In this document: positions 28,286 through 49,501 of the stretch, piece by piece
How the letters are laid out: each line of letters opens with the position of its first letter
Numbering within the stretch: position 1 is the first letter of the stretch
Assembly: GCA_963787995.1 (NCBI GenBank)
Contig: CAWBEO010000001.1
Location: forward strand, 78,337 to 142,336
Source: an uncultured Acidobacteriaceae bacterium
GTDB taxonomy: Bacteria > Acidobacteriota > Terriglobia > Terriglobales > Acidobacteriaceae
Direction: 5' to 3'
Length of the DNA stretch: 64,000 nucleotides
Position numbers and translations under genes: made by a program
Notes under the pieces: model-generated
The model's input: the letters and a program-made list of their open reading frames with translations, nothing else
The model's database searches: none
What the model was told of the DNA's origin: nothing

Positions 28286-28822
28286 TCAACTTTCACATAG
28301 ATCATAGTCTGACGAGGTATCGGCTGCGTGTGTTAGGCGCCAGCCATCGTGGAACGCAAGCAGTGCATCGGGACCTAACCAATAGCGCTTGACTTTCGTG
28401 AAATCCTTTCGAACTGCTGATCGAACCGCGCGAAACAATTTCACAGATAGCTCTCTATCTGAAATCGTTGAAAAATCTCCCATGATAATCGTTCGTTCCC
28501 CCAACACTCCTCCAGGAGAAAAAAGTATCGATTCCGGATTGAAAATCTGTGTAACATCGAAACGGAGATTGCCATCAATCATTTTCATCGTCTCAACGCG
28601 AATATCATAGTTCTTCTCAACGATCAAATAGGAACCGCTATCGTGTGATCGTTTACCCATCGCGCGCCCCAAACTGGGAATCGCACTGTAGCTTTCATAT
28701 TTTTCAATAGTTGGTCCACTAATTCTCCCCGCTCTGACGTATTTGATCTCGTGAAAATTCTCAATCCTAGTCAAAAGTGCAATCAGATCTTTTTCGCAGG
28801 TGTAAACGTATATTGCACTCAT
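28286..28822 (-). CDS. Putative cytoplasmic immunity protein of Rhs toxin 3
   Basis: Probable start MSAIYVY overlapping the toxin stop, preceded by GGAGGG; no signal peptide; AT-rich. Confidence 0.75.
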   Translation of the reverse strand: MSAIYVYTCEKDLIALLTRIENFHEIKYVRAGRISGPTIEKYESYSAIPSLGRAMGKRSHDSGSYLIVEKNYDIRVETMKMIDGNLRFDVTQIFNPESILFSPGGVLGERTIIMGDFSTISDRELSVKLFRAVRSAVRKDFTKVKRYWLGPDALLAFHDGWRLTHAADTSSDYDLCES

Positions 28823-31800
28823 CTCGCCCTCCAGGTATCCGGTGGTCGTTGAGGCATCGGCGGTAATGGTTTGACTTGTCCCCACTTCGGTACCCAAAGG
28901 AGAATATCATTAGGGTATGCCTTGCGAATTCTACCAAGTGCTGCATCCTCTCTGGGCGTCGGAGCACCATTCGCATCTGTATCCACAGTCTGAATTCTTA
29001 CTCTAACTCCTGTATTTTCATCTTTCATCGTGGTATCCACCCAAGTGGATCCCATCGGTCCGCCTCCAATACCGGGAATGTATTCTTCACTTTGTTCACC
29101 ACCTCCATGTTCTACAACAAGCCCGAGGCGCTTCCAGCTTTGAGCAATATAATAATTTTGACGTCTCGTCATATTGCTGCCCCACCGTCCCCCTCCACCG
29201 CTGAGATATCTGAAGGCAAATCCTTCTAAATGACCGAATTGCTCGGCCAACCCAGCTTCTTGCTCAGGAGTGAGACTCGGGGCTTTTCGTGCAGCTGCCT
29301 CAGCTTTTTTATAGCTTTCAAGCTCATCTTTATAATCTTCCCATTTCTGTATTTCACGTAAATCTTCCGCATCTTCTTTGAGATTCTCCGGCTTTGCTTC
29401 AGTCTTAGGATCCTGTGTCTCCTGATGGCCATCTACATCAACACCTTCAAGTGGGTTATTGCCGACATAGGCATAGAGATTAAGCGTCTGCGGAGTGTCC
29501 AGCTTCGCATACGGCACCGGCTCTTCTTTGGCGCTCCAGTCGGGCGACATAAAGCGGCCCATGGCGCTGGAGTAGTAGCGGGCCCCGAAGTAGTCGTTGC
29601 CGGATTCGGCGTCGCGTTCCTTGCCGGTGAAGTGGTGTTCGGTGGGGTATTGGGTGCTGGGGAAGTAGGGCGAGCCGTTGGGATTTTCGCAGCTCAGGCC
29701 GTCGCCGTAGGGCAGGCTGACGCAGGTCTGCTCCAGGACGCCGGCCGAGTCGGTTTGGGCGCGGCGGGTGCCGAGCGGGTCGTCGAGATAGAAGTGCAGG
29801 CCGTCGGCGTCGTAGGTGCCGAGCAGCTTGCCGCCGGCCCAGACGTTGGTGTGCTGCCAGGTGAGCCCCATGGTGACCGCATTGGTTCCACCGGTCATGG
29901 CCGCGCCGGAAGAGGAAATCGACAGTCCTGTGGTGGGATTTGATTGAGAGCAGTTGCAGCCGGCGAGGGAGGCGCTGAATGTATAGTTGGCCGCCGATCC
30001 CACCGTCGTCGAGGTAAATGTCACCACGGGTCCATTGGCCGCGGCGGTGATCAAGCCCCCGCAACTGGCCTGCGAGGCTATTGCAGCCGCGATGGAGGCC
30101 GGCGTCGTTCCGCCCGTTTCTCCGGCTCCGAAATTTACATCGATTACGCAAGGCTCACCGTTCGGAAGCGTGCCGATGAGAACAATAAATGCGCCGTTCA
30201 TCCCCGATAGCAACGTGCCGGAGACGGTGGCCGAGGCGGTGGAGGCGCTACCTGCGCTTGGAGTACCGACGTTGACGCCGATCTCCGAGAGCTGCTCGCC
30301 GCCCAGGCCGAGGGTGAAGTCGGTGGTGGTTTGGAAGCCGTTTTGGCTGGGGTCGCAGGACCAGGCGGTGAGGAGGCCTTTGGCGACGCGGATGCCGTCG
30401 GCGTCGTAGAGGTAGCCGGTCATGGTGAAGCCGCCCAGGCCGGAGAGGGCGCTGACGGCGCAGATGCGGCCCTCGGCATCGTAGAGGTACTGGTTGCCGG
30501 TGGTGGCGTCGCCGACAACATCGCCCGACTGGTCGTAGTTCAGAGGCGAGGGCGAGGGCTGACTGCCACCCGGCGCGATGACGCCCGTGACTTGGTTATT
30601 GGCGCCAAAGACCCATTGGGAGGCCGACTGAATCGGGCATGGAGTGGATTGCGGACTTTGCACCGTGCGGTTGCCGAAGTCGTCGTAGGCCCAGCAGTAG
30701 TAGGGGGTGACGCCGGGGGGCGTGAGGCTGAGGCCGGAGACAGAGTCGGCGGCGGAGGCGAGGCGGTTGAGCGTGTCGTAGGCGAAGTTCCAGGAGCCCA
30801 TGACGGTGTCGGCATAGGCGAGCAGATTGCCGGCGGGGTCGTAGCCGCCCGCGGGAACGGTGTAGGTGTAGACCGGGAGGCCGGTGGTGGTGGTGCTGGC
30901 GGAGCCGCCTTCGAGGTTGCCGGTGACCGGTGTGGGAACGAAGGACGGCTCGGCGAAGAGCGTGGAGTTCCAACTGGTGGCCTGGAGGCTGTAGCTCAAG
31001 TCGATGGCCGTGGTCTTGGCTTCGATGTAGAGCGCGTCGTCAACGGCGGTAACGGCGACCTGGGTGGTGGAGGCGGTGAGCTTTTCAGCGACCGTGGAGG
31101 GGGTGTCTCCTTGGCCGTAACTGGCTGTGGAGACTGTGGTTCCGCCCACGGTGAGGGTGACCGTGCCGGTGTCGTAGGCGGCCCCGGTGACGGTGATGGG
31201 GACGGAGAGGTTGAGGCTGGCGTAATCGGCGGCGTCGGAGGGGATGAAGGCGGCGAAGAGCATCTGCTCGCCGGCGGTCAACTGCGGGCTGCCGACGATG
31301 GTAAGGCTGGGCGCGCCCGATCCCGTGGTGGTGGAGTTGGCCAGCACCTTGCCGGCCTCGTTGGTGTAGGTGAAGGCGCCGGCGACGTTGGCGTTGGCGT
31401 TGAACTGCGCGACGCCGAGGAGCGTGGTGTCGGGGATGGCGGCCGGCGCCGGCCAGGTGATTACCGGCGTGGTCTTGAGGACGTTAAGGGTGACGGAGGT
31501 GGTGAGGGGGGCGAATCCTGATCCGGTGGGCGGGGTGTAGACGACCGTGAGCGTCTGCGGGCCGGCGGGCAGAACGGCGCCCGATTGAGGCGTGTAATAG
31601 CATGTGCCCGGCTGCGCGGGCGCGGTTGAAATCGGGCAGGCGGTCAGCACACCTGCCACGCTGACCTGAGCGTCCAACTGCGCCGCACTCAGCGCCGCCG
31701 GACGGGTGATGGGCGCGGGAGGAACCCAGGCGAGGGCGGGCGGAGGCGGGTTAAATGTTACCGTGAAGGGCCCTGTGGAGCTGCTGAGGGTGAGCGGCAA

Positions 31801-32118
31801 ATTGAAGGTATCCGCACCCTTCAGATGGAGGTACAGCACCGCGCCGACAGCGTGGGCGCAGAGGCCGGAGGCGATATAGTCTTTGGAGAACTTGGCGCCG
31901 AAGGCCGAGGCCAGCGAGGCGGGGGTGGAGTACGGGCCGTAGGGGACGGTCTCGGTGAAGGCGTTGCCGGGGGTGTCTTGGAAGGCGATGGTCAGCGAGC
32001 CGGAGGAACTGCCCGACGCGCCCGTCAGGGTCACCGCCGCATCCGCCGCAAGAACCCGCGGGGCAAGGCAAAGCCCCATCCCCAGCAGCACAATCAGTTT
32101 GCGTGACACGCCGTTCAT
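28819..32118 (-). CDS. Rhs C-half toxin 3 with Sec signal; C-terminal putative nuclease (PD-(D/E)XK-like)
   Basis: Rhs core, NNPLEGVDVDG; CT has EEYIP...TWVDTTM...RIQTVDT; toxin class is inferred. Confidence 0.85.
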   Translation of the reverse strand: MNGVSRKLIVLLGMGLCLAPRVLAADAAVTLTGASGSSSGSLTIAFQDTPGNAFTETVPYGPYSTPASLASAFGAKFSKDYIASGLCAHAVGAVLYLHLKGADTFNLPLTLSSSTGPFTVTFNPPPPALAWVPPAPITRPAALSAAQLDAQVSVAGVLTACPISTAPAQPGTCYYTPQSGAVLPAGPQTLTVVYTPPTGSGFAPLTTSVTLNVLKTTPVITWPAPAAIPDTTLLGVAQFNANANVAGAFTYTNEAGKVLANSTTTGSGAPSLTIVGSPQLTAGEQMLFAAFIPSDAADYASLNLSVPITVTGAAYDTGTVTLTVGGTTVSTASYGQGDTPSTVAEKLTASTTQVAVTAVDDALYIEAKTTAIDLSYSLQATSWNSTLFAEPSFVPTPVTGNLEGGSASTTTTGLPVYTYTVPAGGYDPAGNLLAYADTVMGSWNFAYDTLNRLASAADSVSGLSLTPPGVTPYYCWAYDDFGNRTVQSPQSTPCPIQSASQWVFGANNQVTGVIAPGGSQPSPSPLNYDQSGDVVGDATTGNQYLYDAEGRICAVSALSGLGGFTMTGYLYDADGIRVAKGLLTAWSCDPSQNGFQTTTDFTLGLGGEQLSEIGVNVGTPSAGSASTASATVSGTLLSGMNGAFIVLIGTLPNGEPCVIDVNFGAGETGGTTPASIAAAIASQASCGGLITAAANGPVVTFTSTTVGSAANYTFSASLAGCNCSQSNPTTGLSISSSGAAMTGGTNAVTMGLTWQHTNVWAGGKLLGTYDADGLHFYLDDPLGTRRAQTDSAGVLEQTCVSLPYGDGLSCENPNGSPYFPSTQYPTEHHFTGKERDAESGNDYFGARYYSSAMGRFMSPDWSAKEEPVPYAKLDTPQTLNLYAYVGNNPLEGVDVDGHQETQDPKTEAKPENLKEDAEDLREIQKWEDYKDELESYKKAEAAARKAPSLTPEQEAGLAEQFGHLEGFAFRYLSGGGGRWGSNMTRRQNYYIAQSWKRLGLVVEHGGGEQSEEYIPGIGGGPMGSTWVDTTMKDENTGVRVRIQTVDTDANGAPTPREDAALGRIRKAYPNDILLWVPKWGQVKPLPPMPQRPPDTWRAR

Positions 32119-32147
32119 TCCGTTCCCTCTCGGTGACGCCGTGGTAC

Positions 32148-35100
32148 TTACTGCAGTGTGACAACCGCTTCAATGACGCCCTTGCCGGAGTCGAGCGAGC
32201 CGAGGGCCTTGCCGATGACCGCGCCCAACATGCGGCTGCGGTCGGTGCCCTTCATGGCATAACCGGTGGTGGAGGATGCGACCAGCAGATCGCCGATTTT
32301 GATGGGGCCGTTTTCCGCGCTCACCTTGACGGGGACAATGCCCACCAAGGCCATAGGCACCTCATCGGGAGATTTCGGGGTGGTCTGGCGGCGGCCTACG
32401 GTGCCGGGCTTGGTGGAATAGATGCCGGTGACCAGCGTCGAATAGGCCTCGTTGGACTTGAGGAACTTGCCGGGCGCGCTGGGATCAATGACCAGCACGT
32501 CGCCCGGCGTGAAGTTCTTGCGGTCGCCGGAGACATTGACCGACTCGGCATAGTCGCCGCCGCAGGTGACGCCGGTGTAGGCGGTGGACTGGGTGGTGCC
32601 GTCAGAGAAGGTGAGGGCGCCGCCGCTGCCGCTGGTCAACGTGATACCGCCGTTGACTTCGAGCTTCGCGCCGGGGGTGGTTGTGCCGATGCCGAGTGAA
32701 CCGGCTCCGGTCAAAAACATCAGAGTCGTTCGCGGGGTTCCGCTGATAGGAGCGTTCATGAACGCAAATCCACCCGATCCGCCGCCCTGATTATTGATGA
32801 AGTCCGTTTCTCCTGTGCCCTTGGTTAGCGCATTCCAGCCCAAATACGCACCCTGTGCTGCTGTTGTGGGGTTCGTATTTCCTGACACATGCAAGTAACC
32901 GTTGACATCAAGAGGCACCGCGGGAATCGTCGTTCCTATTCCCACGTTTCCACTTGGTATAACGACGTTCGTCCACCCGCCCTGGTTGATTGTCAAGGTT
33001 CCAGTTTGTGCCTGAATGACGCTCCAGGCTGACCCTGCGCCGCCTATTGATAGAGCACCTGAAGTTCCGCCAGGATATCCGCTTCCTGAAGTGCCAGTGA
33101 TCACTATGTTCCCCGCCACGTCTAAGGCTGAAGCCGGTGTCGTCGTCCCGATCCCGACGCTGCCGGAAGTATTCCAAATTCCGTTTCCGGGAAAATTCGT
33201 GTTTGCGGTGAATGTCTGCGGCGCGCTCCATGTCGTGGCGCTGACCGTCGGCCAGGATGTGATGCAGTTTGTGCCATTGATGCAGTAGCCGCCCGATGAA
33301 TTGATCTGGCCAGAAACGTCGAGCTTAAAAGCTGGTGTCGTCGTGCCGATGCCGACGCTGCCGAGGCCTAAATAATATTGCGACGCATAAAATCCCATTG
33401 GGGTATAAGCAGTATTGGCATCGTTAATCGAAAGAATGCCTGGCGTTCCGCTGAAAGCGCTATTTACATTGGAAATAAAATTTATGTGCTGATTGGTTCC
33501 CAATTTAATATCAACATTGCCGATCGGTGACGTCGTTCCAAACCCGACACTTCCGCCTCCATTGACCACCAACGCCTGCGGAGTGATTTTTGTTCCTGTT
33601 GGATTAAACACTTGCAGGGCCAGATAATCCGATCCCTGAGTTGTGCTTCCCGTATGAGTGAACTGATAAGCGTAAGCGGACGGGTTGAAGATGGCTCCAG
33701 TAGTAATCTCCTGATTGAATGCAAGCGAGCCAAAAGTGGTTCCCCCATCGCCTGGATCAATGCTTACGCCTGTTCCATTACTGTTGATATCGAGCTTGCT
33801 GCTTGGAGTAGTCGTGCCAATACCGACGTTTTCAGAGGGCAACTGAGTGATCACGGAGTTGGTAAGCGTAGAAGTAGTGGGAGAGGAAGGAGTGGTCAGC
33901 AAGGGCACGTTGCCTACAATGGGAGTCACTGACTTGGCGACCACGATGCTCTGCGTCACAGTAGGGGCCGCAGAATAAGTGCTGTTGCCGGCCTGCGTCG
34001 CCTGAATGGTGCAAGTACCTGTGGCAAGGAAGGTTGCCGTTGTGCCGGAGACGGTGCAAACACTGGTCGTAGTCGAGGCAAAGCTGACGGCCAAACCAGA
34101 ACTGGCCGTAGCTGTTAGAGTCAGCGGCGTACCTACTGTCTGCAAAGCAATATATGGGAAACTAATGGTCTGCGCAGTGCCATTGACAGTAAAGCTCTGT
34201 GTCACGGTAGGGGCCGCAGCGTAAGCGCTGTTGCCGGCCTGCGTCGCCTGAATGGTGCAAGTGCCAGCGGCAATGAAGGTTGCCGTCGTTCCAGAGACGG
34301 TGCAAACGCTCGTCGTCGTCGAGGCGAAGCTGACAGTCAAACCAGAACTGGCTGTAGCTGTAAGCGTTAGTGGCGTTCCTATGCTCTGTGTGCTGGGAGC
34401 GGCAAAGGTGATAGTCTGCGACTTCGAATTAACACTAAAGCTCTGTGTCACGGCAGGGGCCGCAGTGAAGGAGCTGTTGCCGGCCTGCGTCGCCTGAATG
34501 GTGCATGTGCCTGTGGCGATGAAAGTTGCTGTCGTGCCGGAAACTGTGCAAACGCTGGTCGTTGTCGAGGCAAAGCTGACGGCCAAACCAGAGCTAGCCG
34601 TAGCCGAAAGCGTCAGCGGTGTCCCCACCGTCTGGGTGCTGGGAGCGGCAAAGGTGATGGTCTGCGATCCTATGCTGGCAGTAAAGCTCTGTGTCACCGC
34701 CGGGGCCGCAGCGTAAGTGCTGTTGCCGGCCTGCGTCGCCTGAATGGTGCATGTGCCCGTGGCAATAAAGTTTGCCGTCGTGCCAGAGACTGTGCAAACG
34801 CTGGTCGTTGTCGAGGCAAAGCTGACGGCCAAACCAGAGCTAGCCGTAGCCGAAAGCGTCAGCGGTGTTCCCACCGTCTGGGGGCTGGGAGCGGCAAAGG
34901 TAATGGTCTGCGCCTTGCCATTGACAGTAAAGCTTTGTGTCACCACAGGAGCGGCAGCGTAAGTGCTGTTGCCTGCCTGCGTTGCCTGAATGGTGCAAGT
35001 GCCGGCGGCGAGGAATGTGGCAGTTGTGCTGGAGACAGTGCAAATGCTAGTCGTCGTCGAGGCAAAGCTGACTGCCAAACCAGAACTCGCCGTGGCCGAA

Positions 35101-37091
35101 AGCGCCAGAGGTGTTCCTACCGTCTGGGGTCCGGGATTAGAGAAGGTGATGGTCTGCGGATCGCCATTAACAGCAAAGCTCTGTGTCACAGTAGGGGCCG
35201 CAGAGTAAGTGCTATTGCCGGCCTGCGTCGCCTGAACGGTGCAAGTACCAGAGGCAATGAAGGTTGCCGTAGTGCCGGAGACAGTGCAAACGCTGGTCGT
35301 AGTCGAGGCGAAGCTGACCACCAATCCAGAGCTGGCCGTGGCCGAAAGCGCCAAGGTAGTTCCCACCGCCTGCGTGCTGGGGGCGGCAAAGCTGATGGTC
35401 TGCGCCATAGGATTGACGCTAAAGCTTTGCGTCACCGCAGTAGCCGCAGCGTAAACACTGTTGCCAGCCTGCGTCGCCTGAATGGTGCATGTGCCTGTGG
35501 CAAAGAAGCTCGCCGTCGTGCCAGAGACGGTGCAAACGCTGGTCGTGGTCGAGGCGAAGCTGACTGCCAAACCAGAACTCGCCGTGGCCGAAAGCGCCAG
35601 AGGCGTTCCTATGGTCTGGGTACTGGGAGCGGCAAAGGTAATGGTCTGAGCCTCGCCATTGACCGGGAAGCTCTGCGCGACCTGTGGGGCTGCCGCATAG
35701 GTAGAGTTGCCAGGCTGGTTTGCGTCAATGGTGCAGGTACCAGCCGCGAGGAATGTGGTAGTCGTGCCGGAGACGGTGCAGATGGAAGTGGTAGCAGATG
35801 TGAAGCTAACTGCCAATCCAGAACTGGCTGCGGCCACTAGCGTCATCGGCGTCCCTACCGTTTGGGTTACAGGAGTCAGGAAGTTAATTGTCTGCGATTT
35901 GCCGTTGACCGTGAAGCTCTGAGGAACCATCGAAGCTGCCGCATAGGTGGAGTTGCCCGACTGGTTCGCGTCAATGGTGCAGGTGCCAGTGGCAATAAAC
36001 GTGGCCGTGGTGCCGGAGACAGAGCAGACGGATGTGGTGGCCGATGTGTAGCTGACTGCCAAGCTGGAACTGGCAGTGGCTGTAAGTGCCAGAGGCGATC
36101 CCACCGTTTGGGTTCCGGGATTTGGGAAGCTGATAGTCTGCGATTCGCCGTTGACCGTGAAGCTCTGCGAGACCTGTGGGGCCGCCGCATAGGTGCTGTT
36201 GCCCGACTGGTTCGCAACGATGGTGCAAGTGCCGGCGGCAATAAACGTGGCTGCGCTGCCGGAGAGGGTGCAAATGGAGGTGGTGGCCGATGTGAAGCTG
36301 ACTGCCAGGCTGGAACTCGCCGTGGCAGAGAGCGTAAGAGGTGTTCCCACTGTCTGGGTTCCTGGATTTGGGAAGCTGATGGTTTGAGCGCTGAGGACCG
36401 TGAAGCTCTGCGCGACCTGTGGGGCCGCCGTATAGCTGCTATTGCCCGCCTGGTTCGCGTCGATGGTGCACGTGCCAGCGGCAATAAACGTGGCTGTGGC
36501 GCCGGAGACAGTGCAGACGGATGTGGTGGCCGATGTGAAGCTGACAGCCAATCCGGAGCTGGCCGAAGCTGAGAGCGTCAGAGGCGTTCCTACCGTCTGA
36601 GTTGCAGGAGTCGAGAAATTAATGGTCTGTGCCCAGACAATAGAAGCACTACCGCCACCTCCATTCCCAGGATAGAAAGTAATTGTGAAACCAGTACCAT
36701 TTAGAGGAAGACCAGAGGGAGGTTCTGCGCCCTGCGGCACGCCAGTCGCACAAGTGCCGTTCCACACTAGGTAGCTCGCCGTTCCAGAAAGAGATGTTAC
36801 TACGCCAGTGGCGCTGGTAAAGGTAAAGCCACTGAAGTTGTACTGCATCATAGTTTCATTATTTGGACCACAAGACTCGTTCGTTACTGTAGAGACAGTC
36901 CAACTGAGTGTTCCGCCGCCCACGCTGAGACTTTGAGCGCGCGCTACTTGTAGGGCCATAGTTCCCATCAAGATGAGCAATACTGTCACGGTCGAGCAGA
37001 GTTTCACGAAGACTCTTGCGACAGCCGCTCCGCTGCAGTTACATACAGATCCCCAACCGATTTTGCGCTTGCCATCTACACGAGGTTGCAT
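32148..37091 (-). CDS. Fibre/adhesin protein: signal peptide, 11 Ig-like repeats, GIGTTTP fibre repeats, C-terminal peptidase G2-like intramolecular chaperone
   Basis: AGGAG RBS before ATG 37091; repeats as listed; GGDYAE...GDVLVI...GIYSTKPG...LVGIVPVKV...GDLLV...GAVIGKAL C-terminus. Confidence 0.88.
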   Translation of the reverse strand: MQPRVDGKRKIGWGSVCNCSGAAVARVFVKLCSTVTVLLILMGTMALQVARAQSLSVGGGTLSWTVSTVTNESCGPNNETMMQYNFSGFTFTSATGVVTSLSGTASYLVWNGTCATGVPQGAEPPSGLPLNGTGFTITFYPGNGGGGSASIVWAQTINFSTPATQTVGTPLTLSASASSGLAVSFTSATTSVCTVSGATATFIAAGTCTIDANQAGNSSYTAAPQVAQSFTVLSAQTISFPNPGTQTVGTPLTLSATASSSLAVSFTSATTSICTLSGSAATFIAAGTCTIVANQSGNSTYAAAPQVSQSFTVNGESQTISFPNPGTQTVGSPLALTATASSSLAVSYTSATTSVCSVSGTTATFIATGTCTIDANQSGNSTYAAASMVPQSFTVNGKSQTINFLTPVTQTVGTPMTLVAAASSGLAVSFTSATTSICTVSGTTTTFLAAGTCTIDANQPGNSTYAAAPQVAQSFPVNGEAQTITFAAPSTQTIGTPLALSATASSGLAVSFASTTTSVCTVSGTTASFFATGTCTIQATQAGNSVYAAATAVTQSFSVNPMAQTISFAAPSTQAVGTTLALSATASSGLVVSFASTTTSVCTVSGTTATFIASGTCTVQATQAGNSTYSAAPTVTQSFAVNGDPQTITFSNPGPQTVGTPLALSATASSGLAVSFASTTTSICTVSSTTATFLAAGTCTIQATQAGNSTYAAAPVVTQSFTVNGKAQTITFAAPSPQTVGTPLTLSATASSGLAVSFASTTTSVCTVSGTTANFIATGTCTIQATQAGNSTYAAAPAVTQSFTASIGSQTITFAAPSTQTVGTPLTLSATASSGLAVSFASTTTSVCTVSGTTATFIATGTCTIQATQAGNSSFTAAPAVTQSFSVNSKSQTITFAAPSTQSIGTPLTLTATASSGLTVSFASTTTSVCTVSGTTATFIAAGTCTIQATQAGNSAYAAAPTVTQSFTVNGTAQTISFPYIALQTVGTPLTLTATASSGLAVSFASTTTSVCTVSGTTATFLATGTCTIQATQAGNSTYSAAPTVTQSIVVAKSVTPIVGNVPLLTTPSSPTTSTLTNSVITQLPSENVGIGTTTPSSKLDINSNGTGVSIDPGDGGTTFGSLAFNQEITTGAIFNPSAYAYQFTHTGSTTQGSDYLALQVFNPTGTKITPQALVVNGGGSVGFGTTSPIGNVDIKLGTNQHINFISNVNSAFSGTPGILSINDANTAYTPMGFYASQYYLGLGSVGIGTTTPAFKLDVSGQINSSGGYCINGTNCITSWPTVSATTWSAPQTFTANTNFPGNGIWNTSGSVGIGTTTPASALDVAGNIVITGTSGSGYPGGTSGALSIGGAGSAWSVIQAQTGTLTINQGGWTNVVIPSGNVGIGTTIPAVPLDVNGYLHVSGNTNPTTAAQGAYLGWNALTKGTGETDFINNQGGGSGGFAFMNAPISGTPRTTLMFLTGAGSLGIGTTTPGAKLEVNGGITLTSGSGGALTFSDGTTQSTAYTGVTCGGDYAESVNVSGDRKNFTPGDVLVIDPSAPGKFLKSNEAYSTLVTGIYSTKPGTVGRRQTTPKSPDEVPMALVGIVPVKVSAENGPIKIGDLLVASSTTGYAMKGTDRSRMLGAVIGKALGSLDSGKGVIEAVVTLQ
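33930..36632 (-). repeat. Coding tandem repeat: 11 x ~246 bp (82-aa Ig-like unit QTITF..QTVGTPLTLSATASSGLAVSF..VCTVSG..GTCTI)
   Basis: Counted 11 units in the translation; shadow ORFs recur at 246-bp spacing (34006, 34252, 34498, 34744, 34990). Confidence 0.95.
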
Positions 37092-37138
37092 GGTTTCTCC
37101 TAAGTCGATCTTCTGGGTGTGCATTCCGTGCGCGAAAT

Positions 37139-37378
37139 TCATTCGCTCAGTTCCGAAAGTGTGCGATTATTACCTGTGTCCCCGACAGAAAGATTGCTGA
37201 ATGAATCGAATGCAGCCCCGTCAGGCACAAAGAAATCATTTGTTCTAGCCGAGCTATTGAGAACCGCAGATCGATGAGCATTCGCAACGCCGACTATCCG
37301 ATTCGCGCCAGCGTAGCCTGTTTGATAGATTGCAGATAACCCGCTGCCCGGATCGCCGGCTCCATGCTCTTTACTCAT
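37139..37378 (-). pseudogene. Degenerate NHL-repeat fragment
   Basis: PDGAAFDSFSNLSVGDTGNNR resembles NHL PxGVAFDxxGNLYVADTGNNR; start overlaps upstream stop (ATGA). Confidence 0.5.
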
Positions 37379-46447: not shown

Positions 46448-49400
46448 ATGCGAAGGACGCGAACTCTTTATACTCTGGCATTTGCCTGTATGCCGCTGTG
46501 CGGGGCTGTGGCTTTGGCCCAGGCGGTTGCGCCGTCTGTACGGATTGTGCGCCCTATCGAAGAGAGCGCGCGGGTGACGCTTAAGGGGAACACGCATCCG
46601 CTTGCCAATGCCAGGAATGACCGGGGCCGGGTGAGTCCGGATCTGCCGATGACGGATCTGATTCTGGTATTGAGCCGTTCGCCAGAGCAGCAGGCGGCCT
46701 TCGACAAGTTTGTGGCCGGTCAATACGACCCGGGTTCGCCTGATTTTCATCACTGGCTTGCTCCGGAGCAGGTGGGCGCGGAGTTCGGCCCTTCCGCGAG
46801 CGATATTGCGACGATCTCCAATTGGCTGACCGGACACGGATTCACAGTCGATAAAGTGTCCAAGGATCGCATGTCGATCCGGTTCAGCGGGACGGCCGGG
46901 CAGGTGGAGAGCGCCTTCCATACCGAGATTCATCACTTGGAGGCCAGGGGCGTTCAGCATATCGGCAATTTCAGCGACCCGCAGATTCCGGCGGCGCTGG
47001 CGCAAGTCGTGGTGGGACCCAAGTCGCTGCATAACTTCTTTGCACGGCCCAGATCCCGGTTAGGCAGCAAGGTTATCAGGGATACTGCTACGGGAAAGTG
47101 GCGGCGCGTGAGCGAGGATTCAACCGGTTCCGGCGCAAGCGGAGCAGCTAAGCCAGGAAAGGCTCGGCCTGAGTTCGGCATCAGCGTGCCCGCCAGCGGC
47201 AATACCCTCCCTTACTTGGTTGAAGATGTGACGCCGTATGATTTTGCCACGATCTACAACATTCTTCCCCTTTGGACGGCGAGCACGCCGGTCGACGGAA
47301 CCGGCCAGACTATCGCCATCGCCGGCACCAGCGCTATTAATTTTGGCACAAGCGTTGCCGGTGGCAATGGCGTAAATGATTTGGCCACATTTCGCAGCAC
47401 CTTTGGCCTGCCTGCATACACCACTGGCCAGTTCACGATGTTTTCCGGCAACAGCCAACCGCTCACCGTCTGCACAGACACGGCCGCAAGCGCGCTTTGC
47501 GGCATCAACGACTTACTGGAAAACACGCTGGATGTGGAGTGGTCCGGAGCAATCGCCAAGGGTGCCAATGTCGTGCTAGTGGCATCCTATCCAGCCTCCA
47601 GTACGGACGACAATCTATTCGACTCAGAGAGTTATATTGTTGACAATAAAACAGCCAATATCATGAATGTGAGCTATGGCCAGTGCGAACTGTTTTATGG
47701 AACTGCCGGCAATGTCGAAAACTATAATCTCTGGCAAACGGCGGCATCCGAGGGGATCGCAGTATTTGTTTCTGCGGGAGACGGCGGCTCAGCGGAATGC
47801 GATGATGGCGGAGACACAATCGGGAATCCTTATTCCGCGCAATATGGCCTATCCGTGAGCGGATTGGCGTCTACGCCTTATAACACTGCGGTTGGCGGAA
47901 CTGACTTCAACTGGTGTTCCCCAGCTTCAACTACCGAGTGTACAGCCGCGCCCTATTGGAGCTCGACCAACGCTGCCAATGGCTCCAGCGCCCTTGGATA
48001 TGTGCCTGAAGTTCCATGGAACGACACCTGCGCGGGTCCGCTGGCTGTAAGTTTTCTAGAGGGACAGGCCAGCCAATATAACATTACAGGCGTCAGCGAT
48101 GCTGAGACAGCATGCAATTTTGTCTACAATCAATGGTCGACTATCTATCAAGATACCGGCGGCGCCCCAAACGGCGTCAATCTATCCTACTATGTCGATA
48201 CAGTGGGCGGAGGAGGAGGCGCAAGCGGGTGCATAGTCAGCAGTTCTACTTCTTCAGTTAACGGAAATTGCACTGCCGGGGCCACCAGTACGGGCGCCAC
48301 AACCAACCCTGATACCGGCGCCGCACAGGGATCAATTTCACTTACCAATAACGGATGGCCCAAACCTAGCTGGCAGACCGGCGTTGCCGGTATTCCCAGC
48401 GACGGTGTGCGCGACATTCCAGATATTTCTTTTTTTGGATCGGACGGGTTTCTTTCAAGCAGTTCCTATCTGGTCTGCGTTTCTGCTTTAGACACAAGCA
48501 ATGCAACTTGCAGTTATTCGCCTACCAGCGAGCCAACTGCTCAGGAGGTTGGCGGAACCTCCGCTGCAACCGCGACCATGTCGGGCGTGATGGCGCTAAT
48601 CAACCAAAAGGCAGGAGAAGCGCAGGGGAATCCCAATGCCGAATTTTACAGTCTTGCCGCGAAGCAAACCTATTCAAATTGCAGCGCGGAGAAAGCTACA
48701 ACAGCGAATGTATGCTACTTCAACGATATCGACACCTATACCAACGCGATGCCGTGCGATTACGGCGCGACAGAGGGCGATCCTTCGCAGGCTGGCATTC
48801 AATCACCGAATTGCTCAATACTGAACTCAGGAGATCTGATCGGCATTCTGCCCAGTTATAGCGCTGGAGTTGGATATGACCAGGCGACAGGTTTGGGATC
48901 ATTGAATGTGGCCAACGTTGTCAATGGATGGGCGAATCCATCTACATCAACATTTACGTTAACAGCTACCACGCCGGCTGCTGTTGCTCCTGGAACATCC
49001 GCATCTTCGACCGTGACTGTAGCCACAACAGACGGTTATTCAGGAACTGTCACACTTTCCTGCGCGCTCACTTCATCTAACCCCTCCACGGCGACAGACG
49101 CGCCCAGCTGTTCCATTGCAACCCCAACAGTAACATTAAATTCCAGCGCCACCAGCGGGACTGCCAATGTAACGATAACCACAACCGCAGCCACCACCAG
49201 CCAACTGATCGCTCCGCATCCGCGCGGCGAGGGCCAGAGATGGATGAGCGAAGGCGCGGTACTGGCGCTCTTGATGTTTTTCGGGGTGCCCATCCGGCGG
49301 CGCTATTGGAGATCAGTTTTGAGTGCCGTTCTTGCGATTGCAGCGCTGAGCGGATTGACCGGATGCGGCAACTTCTGGGAAGCACCGGTAACTTCGACTG

Positions 49401-49501
49401 CTACGGGAACGACCGCCGGCACATACACGTTTACCGTGACCGGCACCGGGAACCCCGTGGTTACTCCTGTTACAACCACGTTCAGTATCACTGTTAATTG
49501 A
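46448..49501 (+). CDS. S53 (sedolisin/kumamolisin) serine peptidase with pro-domain, Ig-like domain and C-terminal TM/lipobox-like tail
   Basis: Pro-kumamolisin domain; ENTLDVEW (Glu/Asp), SAGDGG, RDIPDIS, GGTSAA (Ser), YDQATGLGS. Confidence 0.93.
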   Translation: MRRTRTLYTLAFACMPLCGAVALAQAVAPSVRIVRPIEESARVTLKGNTHPLANARNDRGRVSPDLPMTDLILVLSRSPEQQAAFDKFVAGQYDPGSPDFHHWLAPEQVGAEFGPSASDIATISNWLTGHGFTVDKVSKDRMSIRFSGTAGQVESAFHTEIHHLEARGVQHIGNFSDPQIPAALAQVVVGPKSLHNFFARPRSRLGSKVIRDTATGKWRRVSEDSTGSGASGAAKPGKARPEFGISVPASGNTLPYLVEDVTPYDFATIYNILPLWTASTPVDGTGQTIAIAGTSAINFGTSVAGGNGVNDLATFRSTFGLPAYTTGQFTMFSGNSQPLTVCTDTAASALCGINDLLENTLDVEWSGAIAKGANVVLVASYPASSTDDNLFDSESYIVDNKTANIMNVSYGQCELFYGTAGNVENYNLWQTAASEGIAVFVSAGDGGSAECDDGGDTIGNPYSAQYGLSVSGLASTPYNTAVGGTDFNWCSPASTTECTAAPYWSSTNAANGSSALGYVPEVPWNDTCAGPLAVSFLEGQASQYNITGVSDAETACNFVYNQWSTIYQDTGGAPNGVNLSYYVDTVGGGGGASGCIVSSSTSSVNGNCTAGATSTGATTNPDTGAAQGSISLTNNGWPKPSWQTGVAGIPSDGVRDIPDISFFGSDGFLSSSSYLVCVSALDTSNATCSYSPTSEPTAQEVGGTSAATATMSGVMALINQKAGEAQGNPNAEFYSLAAKQTYSNCSAEKATTANVCYFNDIDTYTNAMPCDYGATEGDPSQAGIQSPNCSILNSGDLIGILPSYSAGVGYDQATGLGSLNVANVVNGWANPSTSTFTLTATTPAAVAPGTSASSTVTVATTDGYSGTVTLSCALTSSNPSTATDAPSCSIATPTVTLNSSATSGTANVTITTTAATTSQLIAPHPRGEGQRWMSEGAVLALLMFFGVPIRRRYWRSVLSAVLAIAALSGLTGCGNFWEAPVTSTATGTTAGTYTFTVTGTGNPVVTPVTTTFSITVN

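Follow-up and report, generated by a model that had tools for sequence, protein, structure and literature searches.

The window, i.e. the whole stretch of DNA analysed here, comprises 64,000 nucleotides of the genome of an uncultured soil Acidobacteriaceae bacterium (GenBank assembly GCA_963787995.1, contig CAWBEO010000001.1, positions 78,337 to 142,336). A gene on its minus strand (32148..37091 including the stop codon, 1647 aa if translation starts with the ATG at 37091), located between the two halves of a split Rhs toxin gene, codes for a protein with a Sec-type signal peptide, eleven tandem immunoglobulin-like (Ig-like) units, a stalk of the phage tail-fibre type, and an all-beta C-terminal domain whose predicted fold resembles that of domain D4 of phi29 gp12. 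The interpretation which we favour, with a probability of roughly 0.55, is that of an exported, phage-derived trimeric fibre which is folded and trimmed by a gp12-type chaperone and acts as recognition or adhesion component for the adjacent Rhs toxins, which are independent of a type VI secretion system (T6SS).

In the proposed mechanism, the protein would derive from phage tail-fibre modules and would be exported by the Sec route. Its last ~560 residues, comprising six GIGTT modules and the C-terminal domain, would form a homotrimeric beta-helical shaft, in which the C-terminal domain, of the Peptidase_G2 type (beta-tulip), would govern folding and register. This domain would subsequently cut itself off at a D-x-A-E junction, leaving the distal shaft end exposed, while each chain would carry a long flexible arm made of twelve upstream Ig-like domains. 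The fibre would work together with the neighbouring Sec-exported Rhs proteins, most likely by recognising or holding the target cell.

Domain architecture of the fibre protein

The open reading frame (ORF) spans 32148..37142 on the minus strand, to which all coordinates within the gene refer, and comprises 1664 aa when counted from the in-frame ATG at 37142; residues are numbered from this first ATG throughout. Translation likely starts at the ATG at 37091, because this codon is preceded by AGGAGAAACC; the upstream ATG is less favoured. The signal peptide (residues 18–69, 36936..37091), already claimed in the initial annotation, was recognised by eye in the translation from its long basic N-region, a hydrophobic core and the motif VARA followed by Q, which would place the cleavage site after residue 69. 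The N-region is unusually long, and a GTG at 37007 would shorten the leader.

The stalk (residues 1101–1527, 427 aa, 32562..33842) follows a linker rich in Pro, Ser and Thr (residues 1073–1100, 33843..33926) and consists of modules of the type G(I/F)GTT.P..L.V. All six repeats noted in the initial inspection were located, with G(I/F)GTT motifs at residues 1107, 1200, 1264, 1330, 1401, and 1484. Residues 1070–1527 match tail-fibre families of the PHROG collection with E values down to 8e-12, and the stalk, including the last module before the C-terminal domain, matches the MAT fibre Bd2133 of Bdellovibrio bacteriovorus (PDB 8OND; E 8e-8). MAT fibres are described in PMC10769870 as trimeric beta-helices on the surface of the predator which act as stand-alone adhesins, and one MAT subfamily carries a terminal self-cleaving S74 chaperone.

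The MAT proteins Bd2133 and Bd3182 and the protein encoded in the window have in common that they are encoded by a bacterium, possess a signal peptide and share the G.GT..P..L.V modules of the shaft. The trimeric beta-helix of the MAT fibres is used to recognise other bacteria, and the self-cleaving C-terminal chaperone of the one subfamily corresponds to what is proposed here. However, the MAT chaperone is an S74 domain with an SDxxxK motif, whereas the domain found here shows the phi29 gp12/Peptidase_G2 (beta-tulip) fold and no match to S74. Moreover, a counterpart of the conserved, beta-rich N-terminal domain of about 130 aa of the MAT fibres was not found here (the MAT domain itself was not directly compared), its place being taken by the twelve-unit Ig-like array; and linkage to Rhs genes, as observed here, is, as far as PMC10769870 was consulted, not reported for MATs.

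The protein terminates in a domain of 137 aa (residues 1528–1664, 32151..32561) that opens with the motif GGDYAE at residue 1528, in agreement with the initial annotation. The motif D1530-Y-A-E1533 at the border between stalk and C-terminal domain (32544..32555) is proposed as autoproteolytic site, in which these residues may have a catalytic role.

Linkage of fibre genes to Rhs genes

In a first sample of 16 loci, Rhs homologues were found to adjoin the closest fibre genes. For a wider set, one genome per species was scanned, which yielded 79 loci. Linkage was scored with shell and core segments of the Rhs proteins only, since part of the toxin protein is Ig-like and repeated throughout the genome: the repeat represented by residues 116–325 of toxin 3 (gene 28819–32118) occurs at more than ten other places of the genome with 35–43% identity, and inflates naive searches for "Rhs".

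The window's clade, defined by a C-terminal domain at least 62% identical to that of the window, comprises 31 loci. Genes for the shell of the Rhs N-half and/or C-half occur downstream, on the same strand and within 10 kb, in 20 of them; one further locus shows a partial match to the fibre domain and has its Rhs genes on the opposite strand, three contain only a small secreted protein bearing the N-domain of the toxin, and seven lack any Rhs-related match, with five of the seven contigs ending within 2.3 kb. In all four of the closest metagenomic homologues, a split Rhs pair follows immediately downstream. In a clade which is only about 35% identical, three of four members adjoin unsplit Rhs genes of 1778–2194 aa (the contig of the fourth ends early), and Rhs genes were nearby in just one of the 48 loci of the sister clade (GADFAES type). 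The Rhs-linked state is found in two separated clades of the C-terminal domain tree, and the linkage of homologues to Rhs loci, on which the initial annotation had made its proposal depend, recurs in two deep branches. The position between the Rhs halves, also pointed out there, is correct for this genome but is not a conserved layout, as the usual order in relatives is fibre gene or genes, N-half and C-half, and a fibre gene between the halves was seen in this window only.

Up to five full-length fibre copies are arranged in tandem per locus (plus fragments in one locus). In Terriglobus albidus (L061:7488-13231), five full copies immediately precede a split Rhs pair, and four full copies and fragments are found in the same position in a metagenome-assembled genome of an Acidobacteriaceae bacterium (L064:5737-10865). 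Among the five paralogues of T. albidus, identity amounts to 76% for the C-terminal domain and to 47% for the remainder of the protein; a conserved C-terminal domain combined with a varying remainder is the pattern of receptor-binding proteins or cassettes.

In some of the loci (L034:9327-9995, L031:8997-9791, L036:9869-10861, also L035:9329-9997), a gene for a small secreted protein directly follows the fibre gene. The N-terminus of these proteins resembles the N-domain of the window's Rhs toxin proteins (32–36% identity, E ~1e-6) and is succeeded by Ig domains of the TIG/Big_3 type. Such a protein could serve as an adaptor between fibre and toxin.

The fibre might also be an independent, MAT-like surface adhesin that shares a mobile island with the toxin genes and makes no contact with the toxin, aggregation or cell contact aiding the secreted toxin indirectly. 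The stand-alone nature of the Bdellovibrio fibres (PMC10769870) fits this explanation. So do the sister clade and the S74-type fibre genes of the genome, six in number, which, apart from one of the 48 sister-clade loci, are not situated near Rhs genes. Furthermore, metagenomic fibre and split-Rhs modules (L134:1-9512, L135:1-7484, L136:1-9910) are situated just downstream of genes for an integrase, a relaxase (Replic_Relax), a DUF87/TrwB-like ATPase and a D12 methyltransferase, which suggests that these modules may be carried on integrative or conjugative elements, and co-transfer could explain part of the linkage. What speaks against an independent adhesin is the tight adjacency on the same strand, with gaps of 15–120 nt between fibre and Rhs genes in the closest metagenomic, some distant-clade and the window loci; this arrangement, recurring in two deep clades and with both split and unsplit Rhs genes, would be hard to keep without a shared function. 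We therefore regard an independent adhesin as a serious but rather unlikely alternative to a fibre that serves the Rhs toxins.

The C-terminal domain

A model of the C-terminal domain was calculated with AlphaFold2 from an alignment of 21 relatives (alignment A1). The predicted structure is all-beta, and most blocks of ten residues have a mean predicted local distance difference test score (pLDDT) >90. Foldseek searches of the PDB with this model retrieved the C-terminal fragment of gp12 (3GQH_A; probability 1.0, E 4e-3, TM score 0.46/0.53) and premature gp12 (3SUC; probability 1.0, E 3.5e-3). In BFVD, many C-termini of phage fibres were matched with E values down to 3e-12, and models annotated as "preneck appendage protein barrel" with 5e-10. 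Identity to gp12 in the structural alignment is about 15%. According to bioRxiv 10.1101/216911, domain D4 of gp12 is an autochaperone built of tandem beta-tulips.

Relatives of the domain lead to the Peptidase_G2 family (PF11962). The C-termini of the proteins P0095 and P0103 match the window's domain in phmmer searches (E 3e-16 and 1e-15, respectively), and the same proteins score 26.8 and 26.1 bits against PF11962 (cut-off 25) over the stretch of the junction that holds the D-x-A-E motif. D1530, A1532 and E1533, which are located in the first strand of the domain, are invariant in alignment A1, and the domain begins with a D-x-A-E motif in each of the 69 non-redundant relatives examined, including the clade that is only 35% identical. 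D1530 and E1533 may be the counterparts of the Asp/Glu pair of the MEROPS G2 family. The fold match, the relatives reaching PF11962 and the conservation of D-x-A-E make a gp12-type autochaperone the likely identity of the C-terminal domain, and self-cleavage would then be expected at D-x-A-E. A profile of the domain retrieved 26,973 clusters at 50% identity (E ≤ 1e-3); among the best 150, the match extends to the C-terminus, or to within one residue of it, in 149.

In summary of the comparison with gp12 D4 (PF11962; 3GQH, 3SUC), both are all-beta domains at the C-terminus following a trimeric beta-helical shaft (with the trimer being proposed for the present protein), the folds match with a TM score of about 0.5, an acidic D-x-x-E is present at the junction, and relatives reach the Pfam cut-off. 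The fibre protein differs from gp12 in lacking a match to PF11962, in its low sequence identity, and in being exported.

Phage decoration proteins and the base of the phi29 fibre gp8.5 dock onto capsids. By analogy, the C-terminal domain might not be released, but be retained as a trimeric base through which the fibre would attach to the Rhs complex, by complementation of beta-strands, with the N-terminal end pointing outward. The top matches of the Foldseek search in the PDB are indeed the N-terminal base of gp8.5 and cement proteins, and the gp8.5 base incorporates a strand of its partner on binding (PMC6542822). The C-terminal domain also is the sole conserved part among the Rhs-linked fibres, and the conserved strand motif at the end of the Rhs N-half recurs at the start of the small post-fibre proteins. 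On the other hand, D-x-A-E is kept in the sister clade, which has no Rhs partner, and this fits catalysis better than docking; that relatives reach the Peptidase_G2 model points in the same direction. A retained base consequently seems improbable to us.

A remnant prophage tail-fibre gene without any role in the toxin locus, as might be suggested by the matches of the stalk to phage tail-fibre families and by the occurrence of the C-terminal fold in phage fibres, is effectively ruled out by the gene context, given the Sec signal peptide, the intact frame of 1647 codons, the absence of phage structural genes nearby and of a match in phage records, and the conserved synteny with Rhs genes.

Weighing the proposed chaperone-folded fibre serving the Rhs toxins

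A number of observations have to be set against an exported, gp12-type chaperone-folded fibre acting with the Rhs proteins. Searches of Pfam, PHROGs and NCBIfam returned no match in the C-terminal domain. PF11962, the model proposed as a check in the initial annotation, matched neither the whole protein nor the isolated domain nor any of the 21 relatives, and gave zero matches in the whole genome at E ≤ 10; the S74 model PF13884 likewise does not match the protein, though it detects six other genes of the genome. When the PDB was searched with the C-terminal domain, by sequence and by profile, only Bdellovibrio fibres were retrieved (via the GIGTT module), and gp12 was not among the matches; tblastn of the domain against 50,697 phage records was without a match. 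Foldseek moreover ranks non-cleaving decoration proteins (the phi29 gp8.5 base, Pam3, TW1) as high as gp12. The release of the cleaved domain of gp12 reportedly needs ATP, which is absent outside the cytoplasm; since the fibre protein is exported, ATP-dependent release in the manner of gp12 cannot apply as such. With respect to the Rhs partner, the linkage counts draw on related genomes, which are not independent of one another, and genes that lie together need not encode proteins that form a complex. Most Rhs genes of the family lack a neighbouring fibre gene, so that the fibre is an accessory of one subgroup. The short fibres of relatives lack an obvious N-terminal docking domain, and a route across the outer membrane is not evident, no secretion genes being located nearby. 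The assignment as an intramolecular chaperone of the Peptidase_G2 type in the initial annotation is accordingly upheld in part only, by the gp12-like fold, the relatives reaching PF11962 and the D-x-A-E motif, while the match of the protein itself to PF11962 did not materialise, a result which, by the criterion set in that annotation, speaks for refutation.

A more far-reaching proposal is that the fibre and the two-piece Rhs cage constitute one extracellular, self-targeting toxin particle, with an exchangeable trimeric fibre, present in tandem variants, docking on the cage. Contact between fibre and cage might be made via the small N-domain common to the toxin halves and the small post-fibre proteins. 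We put this forward tentatively and consider it doubtful. If true, the fibre would supply the receptor recognition that is provided elsewhere by TcA, T6SS or CdiA, and Rhs delivery of this Sec-dependent, contact-mediated kind would be a new class, widespread in soil Acidobacteriota.

Recruitment of phage tail-fibre modules by bacterial toxin systems has been noted before. Zhang et al. 2012 (PMC3482391) described tail-fibre repeats in polymorphic toxins, among them Sec-exported and RHS-containing ones, but only within the toxin polypeptide, whereas here the fibre is encoded by a separate gene, often in tandem variants, and has its own chaperone domain. Like the present locus, Tc (ABC) toxins combine a two-protein cocoon (TcB, TcC) with a separate targeting component, and the fibres of tailocins and extracellular contractile injection systems are likewise cassettes which are variable except for the assembly domain. 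In contrast to these systems, genes for a TcA-like pentamer, a sheath, a tube or a baseplate are absent here, and there is thus no known particle to which the fibre could attach. A search of the literature did not reveal a paper describing a module of fibre and Rhs genes.

We know of no account of how Rhs toxins with a signal peptide reach and enter their targets in bacteria without a T6SS; a conserved fibre-like partner gene makes this question of Rhs delivery testable. The findings would extend the phage-derived bacterial fibres, so far represented by the MAT family of Bdellovibrio, to the Acidobacteriota as well as to another chaperone type. They also define a very large family of C-terminal domains (~27,000 clusters) which in this branch is unrecognised by current Pfam models.

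The Ig-like array and the N-terminal domain

Residues 172–1072 (33927..36629) are made up of tandem Ig-like units. The motif QTI(S/T/N)F marks unit starts at residues 172, 253, 335 and so forth up to 991. Hence, the eleven units of 82 aa with two Cys each that had been noted initially were recovered, with the first unit having 81 aa and two Cys being present in every unit. Tandem Repeats Finder reported a period of 246 bp, 10.8 copies and 79% matches for the array. Pairwise DNA identities between the units range from 65 to 88%, and two sub-groups are discernible, formed by units 1–4 and 5–11. A single unit, modelled with an alignment of the other units and of paralogous arrays of the same genome, is predicted to adopt an Ig-like beta-sandwich (pLDDT 95.6), and its best structural matches in the PDB are phage and bacterial Ig-like domains (TM score 0.63–0.74). 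The Pfam model Big_3_5 (PF16640) scores 21–23 bits on the units, i.e. below the cut-off of 35.5.

A hidden Markov model of the unit found no other carrier among about 120 fetched fibre homologues. The Rhs-linked fibres of relatives mostly have lengths of 340–720 aa, and in them the signal peptide leads straight into the shaft; at 954–1178 aa, the closest metagenomic homologues exceed this range, and one of them, P0002, contains two Big_3_5 domains. By these comparisons, the array of eleven units is a local addition particular to this genome, and "chimeric", the term used in the initial annotation, is a fair label.

The 102-aa domain between the signal peptide and the array (residues 70–171, 36630..36935) matches the repeat unit weakly and probably represents a twelfth, degenerate Ig-like unit. 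No homologue of this domain turned up among the fetched proteins and related loci, in the genome or in the PDB; similarly, a PDB search with the N-terminal 266 residues did not yield a relative. Its comparison with the N-domain of the toxin proteins showed no significant similarity.

Lone Ig domains do not trimerise. The Ig-like units are therefore expected to form three flexible arms outside the trimeric shaft rather than an extension of it. The stalk-and-tip architecture suggested initially is, accordingly, correct as to the order of domains, but it would not include the Ig-like array in the trimeric shaft.

Seven nearly letter-identical Ig-like repeats of 86 aa, of a type shared with the fibre array (~46% identity) but far more homogenised, are encoded elsewhere in the same genome (L145:1919-3739, corresponding to C2:773918-775738), within an open frame that spans about 1868 aa.

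Locus and genome context

The gene downstream of the fibre gene, toxin gene 3 (28819..32118, minus strand), codes for an Rhs C-half with signal peptide, small N-domain, Ig-like repeats, shell, Rhs core and toxin. Upstream lies the gene of the Rhs N-half (37375..41595, minus strand), the product of which comprises a signal peptide, an N-region of about 900 aa, DUF6443 and RHS repeats. This gene ends 283 nt upstream of the fibre gene. The stop codon of the fibre gene precedes the ATG of toxin gene 3 by 29 nt (32119..32147, minus strand; initially given as 30 bp), with the ribosome-binding site GAGAGGGAA in the spacer. Because such a spacer is too small for a terminator plus a promoter, the two genes are presumably co-transcribed; a scan of the gene flanks for promoters and terminators was uninformative. 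Signal peptides were recognised by eye in the four cluster proteins that were inspected, namely the A protein, the Rhs N-half, the fibre and toxin 3.

Neither the T6SS sheath protein TssC nor Hcp is encoded in the genome, which is 100% complete. The Rhs locus of the window is the only one in the genome, and the C-terminal domain of the fibre is single-copy; nine other genomes of the genus do not contain this domain, save one marginal fragment. On account of the absence of the domain from these nine congeners and its single copy, the locus looks like an acquired island. The flanking genes are housekeeping genes, and phage or secretion genes were not found nearby.

The six genes detected by the S74 model (L126-L131; C1:1696392-1698863, C2:829144-831150 and C2:1152241-1152405 of the same genome) are fibre-like, and each ends with a chaperone of this type (PF13884). 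Tandem ORFs of 343–382 aa account for three of them, and an Rhs shell match was not found near any of the six. Divergent to the toxin cluster and beside its first gene, the window contains a gene for a 1037-aa protease of the sedolisin/subtilase type (46388-49501, plus strand), with a Pro-kumamolisin activation domain and a Peptidase_S8 domain, which might process exported proteins of the cluster.

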